A DNA stretch of 62,847 bases, filler included, from Stramenopiles sp. TOSAG23-6 (lineage: Eukaryota), in NCBI GenBank assembly GCA_900128565.1. It is 38 parts of 38 records of this genome, joined end to end, with 100 filler letters (N's around TTAATTAATTAA, not from the genome) between each part and the next. Parts side by side here need not be neighbours in the genome. Positions count along the whole stretch, not along the records: positions 14,960 to 16,521 come from LT638867.1; 37 more parts are not named here. One strand, written 5' to 3'. The position numbers and the translations under genes were made by a program. Positions 15,018 through 16,225 of this stretch are shown piece after piece (position 1 is the first letter of the stretch; each line of letters starts with the position of its first letter). The notes under the pieces were generated by a model. It was not told where the DNA came from and ran no database searches. It was given only the letters and a program-made list of their open reading frames with translations.

Positions 15018-16225
15018 ATACCTTTACACTGGGCCGCGCTACAATGTCACTGGAATGTTATTGATACTCTTCTTCGACATGGTGATGCAAAAGCTCAATT
15101 GGATGCGAAAGATAGCACAAATTGCAACTCGGAAGAATTAGCTCGAGAAAAATCTACTAGAATTGAAGGTGATAAAATGCATAGATACGTACACCTTGCA
15201 GATTTACTTCAAAAAGAACGGAAAAAACTAAATTATTTTAGTTATTTTACTGGGGATCGGAAAGTCAAGTGGTCAATGATGGGTGGAGTAGGTGCTTGGT
15301 TCTTTACATTTCTCGCGCTATTTGAGTGGTCTATTTCCTACTTTCTATTTTTTATGTATATGATTGATTACGTCTCTTATCGTTCAATTGTATTATTGAT
15401 ATTTGGAATTACGTCTTTTCTTCAAATTTATTTTTGGTACAATACTACGTTTAGTGATCCGGGTTACGTCACTGACAAACAAAGAAAATTTTTACCGAAA
15501 TTTGGTAAAAGTATCAGAATCCTTCGGGAGAAATACGAAAAAGCTCTCGAGTGCTCAGCTGATACACATTTACCAATGAATGTCACTGAATCAATAGTAC
15601 GACCTTTTCGTAGTAAACACGACTCAGCGACGGATCGAACAGTTCTTCGATTTGATCATTTTTGTCCATGGATGAATAATGTATTTTTTATTTTTTTTTT
15701 CAATTTATAATTTATTTTCGTACGAAATTTTGTACCTAACGAATTTTAAGTTTTTTTTTCAAATATTTTTCCAAAATACATGCGATTGGACAAAAAAATT
15801 ACTTTTATTTTGTAATGTTTTTATTTATAACTGTACCTCTGTCGTGTTCATGGATGACATTAGGACATACATATCTATTATACGAGAACGGTGGAAGAGG
15901 CAGTACATGGGCTATATCAAGAAAAAATCCTCTCCTCGCTTTTTGGTTTTTTCATTATTTTATATACTTTATATATTCCATATTATTGGGAGCGCAGCAT
16001 TGGCACCTAATATCAAAAAATCTGACTACAAATGAAATGATTAATTCATGGAAATATCCTTATTTCAAAGATAGTACTGGTACATTTAAGAATCCATTTG
16101 ATAAAGGAAAATTTCATAATTTTGTAGATTTTTTTAGTGGTTCAGAAAAAATTGTATTGCCAGCTAAAGAAATATTTGAAGATGATGGAACTATTGAGGT
16201 CTTTGGAAGCGACCGAGTGGTATGA
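15018..16225 (+). CDS. Ankyrin-repeat DHHC palmitoyltransferase (ZDHHC13/17/Akr1-like), 3' part; intron 15681-15781
   Basis: Ankyrin PLHWAA, DPGY, RPFRSKH...RFDHFCPWMNN|AIGQKNY, NLTTNEMIN, NPFDKG. Confidence 0.9.
15681..15781 (+). other. GT-AT intron
   Basis: AAT|GTATTTTT...TTCGTACGAAATTTTGTACCTAAC...CCAAAATACAT|GCG restores CPWMNNAIGQKN. The AG at 15749-15750 would cause a frameshift. Confidence 0.88.

Follow-up and report, generated by a model that had tools for sequence, protein, structure and literature searches.

A repeated, introner-like intron family with probable GT...AT boundaries in contigs of Stramenopiles sp. TOSAG23-6

An introner-like repeat in a palmitoyltransferase gene

The DNA analysed here, a stretch of 62,847 nucleotides (nt) from assembly GCA_900128565.1 of Stramenopiles sp. 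TOSAG23-6 (the window), contains a DHHC palmitoyltransferase gene that is interrupted at positions 15681-15781 of the + strand. We propose that this interruption would be a spliceosomal intron and one copy of a high-copy, introner-like repeat of ~100 nt. That the window holds a repeated intron family is, in our judgement, practically certain. The complete interpretation, namely an introner-like family spliced from GT to AT with a 2-bp target duplication in its younger subfamily, is one that we favour with moderate confidence.

The focal intron is 101 nt long and consists of a 99-nt element (15681-15779) followed by AT, a placement based on sequence, reading frames and a homologue. Its ends had been predicted to be exact reverse complements flanked by a direct AT repeat, and so they are: the 9-nt left arm (15679-15687, +) is exactly complementary to the right arm (15773-15781, +), with an exonic AT at 15679-15680 and an intronic AT at 15780-15781. 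Between the arms lies a conserved 22-nt core (15719-15740, +) with a branch-site-like ..CCTAAC, whose ..GTACCTAA.. columns are invariant among 16 aligned copies. The upstream exon (14961-15680, +), a phase-0 open reading frame (ORF) of 240 codons, encodes an ankyrin repeat (PF00023) and the start of the DHHC domain (PF01529), and the downstream exon (15782-16222, +), placed by homologue alignment, lies in a frame that is open for 147 codons at this intron end alone. The junction is collinear with protein P0103 (42% identical), exon 1 corresponding to residues 1-204 and ending DHFCPWMNN, and exon 2 continuing from residue 205 with AVG... The source tag of P0103, 'merc', presumably denotes a protein assembly from marine metatranscriptomes. 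Collinearity with this one 42%-identical homologue is the basis on which exact removal of the focal intron is predicted.

Two further observations concern the same gene. Its DHHC motif reads DHFC (15650-15800, +), and the position five residues further on, usually Cys, is Ala; both features are common to P0103 and therefore represent a lineage trait rather than a splice error. A second frame overlapping the DHHC exon (15676-16035, +) is open for 119 codons, which is unusual for DNA this AT-rich.

Sequence set

The window consists of 38 contigs arranged in falling order of length (1563 to 1546 bp) and is not a single locus. Contigs are joined by a 100-bp artificial linker, N44-TTAATTAATTAA-N44, whose 12-nt block places a stop in all six frames and which recurs every ~1650 bases (e.g., 16522-16621, without strand, where the contig on the left stops inside an element; also 1564-1663). 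Further runs of 1-230 N occur within contigs. Contig 1664-3225 is present eight times and contig 38186-39739 twice, all copies being identical, and the unique set comprises 30 contigs and 46.7 kb. An apparent 1662-bp tandem repeat at ~1600-15000 was dismissed as an artefact of concatenation or assembly, made up of identical repeated contigs.

The window has a G+C content of ~27%. The standard code gives ORFs of ~500 codons, and ordinary eukaryotic gene fragments are found throughout (protein kinase, DHHC palmitoyltransferase, DUF5917, Dna2, SBDS, prolyl oligopeptidase, DEAH-type helicase, GH31 glucosidase, P-type ATPase, CDPK-like kinase, UCH and others). The best named relatives of the SBDS protein are stramenopiles (42-46% identity, no tree built), a result suggestive of stramenopile affinity. 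Rfam and tRNA scans of the window gave no match. Counts out of 26 given below refer to a curated set of complete family introns, our own list by coordinates, drawn from motif matches.

One repeat family shared by unrelated genes

Family members share a common layout: GTAYGTTTT at the 5' end, then a 22-nt core ending ..TTTTGTACCTAAC between two T-rich stretches, and finally a 3' block ..AATAC with two more bases after it; about 45 positions are conserved. A profile built from five introns (nhmmer) recovered dozens of copies, complete or partial, from either strand of the 46.7 kb of unique contigs, and the 5' motif GTATGTTTT was matched 23 times against 2.3 expected, 8 of the 23 coming from the contig present eight times. 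The host genes are unrelated (Pkinase, DHHC, DUF5917, Dna2, Helicase_C, GH31, E1-E2 ATPase, TGS). The introns named in the original prediction align over their whole length, and the best six copies (1124, 15681, 17845, 27031, 30628, 62548) show 85-89% pairwise identity, whereas shuffled copies reach a mean of 61% and a maximum of 72.5% over 855 pairs. The earlier statement that introns of unrelated genes share near-identical long segments was thus right about kinship and overstated in the word 'near-identical'. The likeness is not confined to short splice signals either, interior identity within subfamily A being 75% against 61% in the control.

Two subfamilies can be distinguished, one beginning with GTATGT (TTTATTTTTTTTCAAATT..), here called subfamily A and the more uniform of the two, and the other beginning with GTACGT or GTACAT, often with an extra ..TTTTCATCATGAATTTC.. 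block. Cores also occur in tandem within a single intron, as in the array at 45058-45372 (+), where five to six core units follow a 58/114-bp period. Intron density is high, with five or six copies on the 1.56-kb helicase contig and likewise on the GH31 contig. Of 25 matches lying beside an ORF of at least 80 amino acids, 23 share the strand of that ORF; the two exceptions are a pseudo-ORF made of a lysine run and a copy past the DHHC stop, which probably lies in a convergent gene.

Copy number appears to be high. Sixteen of 58 contig ends fall inside a family match, and such matches cover 7.4% of unique bases (p = 3e-6); contigs break at the element, as a short-read assembly is expected to do at a high-copy repeat. 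When contig 29902-31459, which belongs to the helicase gene, was compared with seawater contigs from three RNA runs and one DNA run, 1,269 to 8,169 contigs were matched. Summed depth was ~1e3 to 1e5 in element bins and 0 to ~50 in exon bins, sums that do not translate into copy numbers and to which other organisms may contribute.

Many short contigs of the seawater DNA run X6 connect the 3' end of an element (30730-30732) directly to a 5' start (31403-31406), and weaker traces of this are seen in the RNA runs. With sides of at most 28 nt, these joints are a weak sign that could reflect tail-to-head tandem copies or circles.

Beyond the window, the full-length family pattern had no match in metagenome_contigs, and the 20-nt core had none in viral_contigs. 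A 16-mer of the core gave 118 single-match loci (gut, sludge, others), none of which was matched by the family nhmmer model at E<=1e-3, and these loci are taken as chance matches.

The unit removed and its boundaries

Ending each intron where the motif places its end leads into the longest downstream frame in 20 of the 26 cases, often the sole long one (147, 222, 184, 262 and 202 codons). This agreement is unlikely to be fortuitous (p = 4e-5, computed for 19 of 26 against one third, the copy at 22310 being the twentieth after a one-base change of its end).

Five junctions, among them two with non-AT repeats and one without a repeat, were compared with homologues; all are collinear, four of them without a gap, and the remaining one has an extra window residue beside the GH31 junction. 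The helicase exons align to human DHX29 up to residue 948, over 950-984 and from 986, leaving one residue for each split codon. These single-residue gaps therefore fix the introns at 30628-30733 (+), with AG at both the exon end and the intron end (AG/AG) and hence a canonical GT-AG intron, and at 30843-30934 (+), with GT at both ends (GT/GT). At the AT/AT copy 27452-27367 of the GH31 gene (-; 5' GTTTGT), the next exon starts at residue 399 of 5djw_A, the previous one having reached 396 plus two residues, and the split codon T+GG yields the Trp before SGDN; the extra residue may be genuine or the result of a shifted alignment. The exons flanking the CDPK-like copy 26066-25974 (-), which ends AC/AT without a direct repeat and is also placed by frames, are contiguous on 9vhu_A (CDPK3) at ~395|396, and in our reading of the translation the junction would rebuild a regular EF-hand loop. 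No solved structure matched the GH31 exon 27926-28066, so that the AC/AT junction 27923-27833 (-) is placed by frames only, its downstream frame being open for 144 codons.

Because frames and homologue collinearity require it, we are highly confident that the unit removed is the element plus two bases, in agreement with the earlier claim that the element is excised with one dinucleotide copy. The 5' dinucleotide is GT in 25 of the 26 introns and GC in the other one. The last dinucleotide is AT in 22, AG in two, GT in one and TT in one; AT also ends 9 of 12 5'-truncated copies, or 31 of 38 when complete copies are included. Given the conservation of GT (25/26) and AT (22/26) and the classical GTATGT/GTACGT 5' end, the cleaved bonds probably lie at GT and AT. 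AT predominates at the intron end also after exons that end differently, as expected if it acts as an acceptor independently of any duplication, a point that the original prediction had also made.

Assignment to the canonical U2-type GT-AG class was rejected: its 5' end is present (25 GT, 1 GC), while its 3' AG occurs in only 2 of 26 introns. Internal AGs located ~14 nt after the branch-like core appear, as we read the sequences, to be skipped in several copies. The regular use of AT suggests that the place of the 3' site depends on its distance from signals internal to the element rather than on an AG.

Direct and inverted repeats at the junctions

Exon end and intron end are identical in 14 of the 26 introns, with AT/AT in 12 and the AG/AG and GT/GT helicase copies supplying the other two. 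A previous count of 21 matches in 33 introns, including 19 AT/AT, relied on a list that was unavailable to us; its AG/AG and GT/GT cases stand, and in our set the figures are those just given. Exon-end AT (12/26) exceeds the 12.5% found before GT in long ORFs (binomial p = 2.5e-5). The association between the two ends was further examined by shuffling intron ends among introns, and at least 14 matches arose in 1.2% of trials (p = 0.012), the excess over the margins being due to the AG/AG and GT/GT copies.

The direct repeat is found in 11 of 15 members of subfamily A and in 3 of 11 others (Fisher p = 0.045). Six ends for which only the 5' part is available also follow an exon-end AT (38249, 43165, 31407, 28296, 61409 and 49057): three begin with GTATGT, 28296 with GCATGT and 61409 with GTACGT, and 49057 is masked after GTA. 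Two other such ends follow GC or GT. Where a subfamily A copy has a consensus-like 3' block and a non-AT end (AG, GT), that end matches the exon end in both cases. In our reading, a 2-bp target duplication, usually of AT, is likely in the GTATGT subfamily, and the matched AG/AG and GT/GT cases favour it. A duplication of 3 bp (ATG) was dismissed, because only about half of the copies have G as the first base after the intron.

The inverted repeat spans 9 nt at the focal copy, AT included, and 4-9 nt overall, only GTAT/ATAC being general. The proposal of an element resembling a miniature inverted-repeat transposable element (MITE) that inserts with a 2-bp AT duplication is supported in part, by the repeat family and by the AG/AG and GT/GT evidence. 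The target duplication of Tc1/mariner-Stowaway elements is TA, and a Stowaway-type MITE was rejected, as the repeated dinucleotide here is AT, AG or GT. To judge from the sequences, spread as DNA with a 2-bp duplication is evenly poised between right and wrong, and transposition with AT duplication is a good inference rather than a demonstration.

A model for the insertion and splicing of the family

We suggest the following scenario. The element would come with a 5' splice site (GTATGT/GTACGT), a T-rich body containing a branch-site-like core (..TTTTGTACCTAAC) and the 3' block ..AATAC, and the intron would end two bases past that block, usually in AT. In the GTATGT subfamily these last two bases would repeat the upstream exon end, as a 2-bp target-site duplication would make them do, so that excision of the element with one repeat copy would leave the coding sequence as it was before insertion. 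The spliceosome would use AT as its normal last dinucleotide and, apparently now and then, AG, GT or TT, spliceosomal chemistry acting at GT and AT. All copies would retain AT at the 3' end for its present role as splice acceptor, while the exonic copy would drift or, elsewhere, would never have existed. GTACGT-type copies without the repeat would be the older ones.

Weighing the interpretation

Several observations weigh against this scenario. Some concern the boundaries. Six of the 26 introns depart from the frame test, since 1124, 16764 and 51132 fit the second-best upstream phase and 32492, 50949 and 35179 are ambiguous. For AT/AT copies, boundaries at GT-AT, TG-CA and AT-AC give the same message, and even in non-repeat copies a two-base shift keeps the frame (in the CDPK-like gene, even the same amino acid), which leaves the exact bonds unproven. 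Among the joints listed for contig 29902-31459 (there were 428 more, in assembled contigs only) no spliced joint across its introns was present, those listed being element-to-element cross-joins; exon cover was thin, and one RNA contig (X5, record 9) extends over 22 nt from exon into intron. The sample of 26 introns is also small, and introns without the core would be missed by it.

Others concern mobility and the duplication. Twelve of the 26 introns lack the direct repeat, which is concentrated in one subfamily. Two non-AT ends are unmatched, TT after GT at 46772-46674 and AG after TT at 35179-34987, the latter with a subfamily A 5' end, and the GT/GT case at 30843 can also be read as GT-AT after a two-base slide. 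The ends are complementary over 6 bp in 80% of cells across 16 copies, with no covariation, and RNAalifold found no consensus structure or pairs. No transposase domain was detected among 20 ORFs scanned in the 46.7 kb of unique sequence, no empty site turned up, and pairwise divergence of 11-15% or more gives no sign of very recent activity.

Among the alternatives, an RNA route deserves to be considered first, although we judge it unlikely. Copies would have spread by reverse splicing of excised introns into other messages, followed by reverse transcription and recombination, the AT would belong to the element, and exon-end AT would be a proto-splice site. Such a route predicts the strict sense orientation observed here and would explain why the AT end is kept whatever the exon end (31/38) and why 12 of 26 copies have no repeat; the weakness of the inverted repeat and the lack of any transposase among the ORFs scanned also speak for it. 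It does not explain why AG at 30733 and GT at 30934 match their own exon ends, nor why matching exceeds the margins (permutation p = 0.012). Moreover, one spliceosome should give one preference, yet exon-end AT is frequent in one subfamily only (11/15 vs 3/11), and the tandem core arrays look like the product of events at the DNA level.

Alternatively, these could be ordinary old introns with long, rigid splice signals, their likeness being maintained by selection or concerted evolution rather than by mobility, which seems quite unlikely to us. The most conserved blocks do sit where splice signals are expected, the remainder is T-rich and of low complexity, which alone yields ~61% identity, and the copies are not near-identical. 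Yet ~45 conserved bases far exceed the known needs of splice signals, judged by those of the yeast type, and the interior of subfamily A is well above the shuffled control (75% vs 61%). Tandem core arrays within single introns, of which a splice signal needs none, direct repeats in excess of chance and the 16 assembly breaks at the element also argue against old introns.

A third alternative shifts the true boundaries two bases to the left, to AT...AC, and would make these AT-AC introns, spliced by the minor or the major spliceosome. The message is the same in the 12 AT/AT copies, and ATGTAT...ATAC does have AT-AC termini. The 12 non-repeat copies would, however, then start with CT, AA, AG, AC, GG or TT, among others, whereas the GT-AT reading gives GT in 25 and AT in 22 of 26. 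U12-type introns are marked by a 5' consensus /RTATCCTT (/ATATCC) and by a branch site 10-15 nt before the 3' end. The present introns instead begin with GTAYGTTTT (ATGTATG under the shifted reading), and 30-55 nt separate their CCTAAC core from the 3' end. The U12 type was accordingly rejected, and AT-AC boundaries in general are very improbable.

Finally, removal at the DNA level from a germline-like assembly, as for the internal eliminated sequences of ciliates, follows formally the same rule (element plus one copy of a 2-bp repeat), but it is hardly credible, and the ciliate type was rejected, since 12 of 26 copies lack the obligatory repeat, a classical 5' splice site and a branch-like core are present in the elements, ORFs of ~500 codons are obtained under the standard code, and the best named SBDS relatives are stramenopiles.

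Comparison with known systems

The proposed introner-like family shares two features with introners: sequence is shared along the length of introns in unrelated genes, and removal is exact as judged from DNA and homology rather than RNA. According to PMC11282704 and PMC9860276, the introners of Micromonas, Aureococcus, Chrysochromulina, dinoflagellates and others are likewise short multi-copy elements that form introns of unrelated genes; some families show target duplications and inverted repeats, in some the element supplies the 5' splice site and the duplication the 3' one, and removal usually preserves message length. In several algae and dinoflagellates, the same papers report, introners carry one splice site and obtain the other from a target duplication of 3-9 bp, the sites being canonical (PMC9860276, PMC11282704). 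The present family differs in that the duplication would be of 2 bp, usually AT, and would yield an AT end instead of a co-opted canonical AG.

Non-canonical ends are known from other lineages. In the tunicate Fritillaria borealis, as reviewed in PMC11282704, MITE-derived introns have inverted repeats, junction duplications and non-AG ends, AG-AC and AG-AT being commonest, so that AT does serve there as a last dinucleotide. Its introns differ from ours by a non-canonical 5' end and very diverse boundaries, whereas the present family combines a classical GTATGT/GTACGT start with a nearly uniform 3' end, in a protist with stramenopile-like proteins. Amoebophrya, a parasitic dinoflagellate and, like our organism, a marine protist, also has repeated intronic elements with duplications and inverted repeats; PMC11282704 describes most of its introns as non-canonical with highly variable boundaries and its U1 small nuclear RNA (snRNA) as reported missing. 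In contrast, the 5' site of the present family looks fit for U1 pairing. The nonconventional introns of euglenids and hemistasiid diplonemids resemble ours in their short direct repeats at junctions, complementary ends and proposed MITE origin (PMC12621601, PMC11282704). Unlike ours, they have no GT and rely on stable pairing of their ends, according to the same papers; here GT is kept and no consensus structure was found. Membership of this euglenid/diplonemid type was rejected on the conserved GT, the lack of structure and covariation, and protein affinities that are not euglenozoan; a diplonemid origin of the DNA was set aside on the GT and the protein affinities.

A literature search, with supplements outside its scope, returned no paper joining 'introner' with 'GT-AT' and none describing this family, and in PMC5778133 the word 'intron' appears in two passages, both on methods. 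An introner-like family in which a canonical 5' site goes with a 2-bp duplication and with AT as the regular last dinucleotide, as the sequences lead us to propose, would thus appear to be new.

Implications

Introners are the best-supported route for intron gain in bursts, and mass non-canonical splicing in Fritillaria, Amoebophrya and euglenozoans is the main evidence that spliceosomes adapt to invading elements. A simple 100-nt element with a textbook 5' site and a near-uniform AT in place of AG would allow the choice of the 3' site to be considered in isolation, whether it is made through pairing between the first and the last base of the intron, through U2AF-type recognition of AG or through distance from the branch. 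A bolder view, which we put forward tentatively and consider rather unlikely, is that most or all spliceosomal introns of this uncultured marine protist descend from one introner superfamily and that its spliceosome has been retuned to GT...AT, measuring the intron end two bases past ..AATAC instead of reading an AG. If true, a free-living eukaryote would have replaced the AG rule almost completely, driven by an AT-targeting element that duplicates 2 bp. As the element is abundant in seawater data, existing metatranscriptomes should yield junction reads, polymorphic insertions and related hosts. In practice, gene callers that demand AG will mis-annotate this genome.

Further copies of the family

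The remaining members of the set are given here with the exon end followed by the intron end. On the + strand, AT/AT copies lie at 1124-1223 in a protein kinase gene (where the frame fits the second-best upstream phase only), at 16764-16876 (5' GTACGT, fitting upstream phase 2), at 17845-17946 (placed by alignment and frames) and at 49458-49605 (weak frame support). The DEAH-box helicase gene holds two more, 30065-30156 and 31066-31171 (the latter with 5' GTACGT), both AT/AT and placed by frames, in addition to the AG/AG and GT/GT copies described above; these two rest on frames as well as on DHX29, and the GT/GT copy would read GT...AT if slid to 30841-30932. A CT/AT copy at 17076-17202 in the DUF5917 gene opens a downstream frame of 222 codons solely at that end, and another CT/AT copy, at 32492-32765 in the P-type ATPase gene, has an interior partly made of N and an ambiguous frame. 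The copy at 51737-51845 has a GC 5' end (GCACGT), an exon end TT and an intron end AT, and opens into a downstream frame of 262 codons; it would be a GC-AT intron. A second copy starting with GC is found at 28296 (-), with GCATGT.

The minus strand carries the GH31 copy 26930-27031 (AT/AT; frames and domain match), together with the two GH31 junctions already discussed, and a copy at 26291-26387 (5' GTACAT, AA/AT; frames). In the Dna2-like gene, the copy at 20264-20413 (-) begins with GTAGGT, ends AA/AT and measures 150 nt, in frame. It is free of stops, so that an ORF of 510 codons runs through it, and ORF-based gene calls would keep it as protein. Frames also place the copies at 22213-22310 (-; AG/AT, its end adjusted by one base), 46674-46772 (-; 5' GTACGC, with the unmatched GT/TT) and 50159-50303 (-; GG/AT), and, together with a domain match, the AT/AT copy at 45971-46122 (-) in a DRG/TGS GTPase-like gene. 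Frames are ambiguous for a composite intron with two cores at 34987-35179 (-; TT/AG) and for the partly masked AT/AT copy at 50785-50949 (-). The copy at 51023-51132 (-; 5' GTACAT, AG/AT) fits the second upstream phase, and an AT/AT copy at 62447-62548 (-) is placed by alignment and frames.

Other features of the window

Contig 54708-56256 stands apart: its G+C content of 42% is clearly higher than that of the other contigs, and overlapping ORFs are numerous on either strand; it may differ in origin. On contig 36531-38085, a prolyl oligopeptidase exon (36923-37477, +) is ~97% identical over 190 residues to the 385-residue Logan protein P0001, other matches being distant. Similarity breaks off abruptly at ~37477, with no intron-like motif there and the rest of the protein not found in the window; the contig may be chimeric or the gene copy truncated.

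A telomere-like 12-mer made of two TTAGGG-type units occurs 38 times in the window, at 15 unique sites, against 0 expected (e.g., 17555, 20574, 20726, 23014, 28852, 29137, 32027, 45618, 48856 and 50012). These sites are short, interstitial and on either strand; several lie in frame within long ORFs, where they encode NPNPN or GLGLGL, and others lie in T-rich, intron-like DNA.

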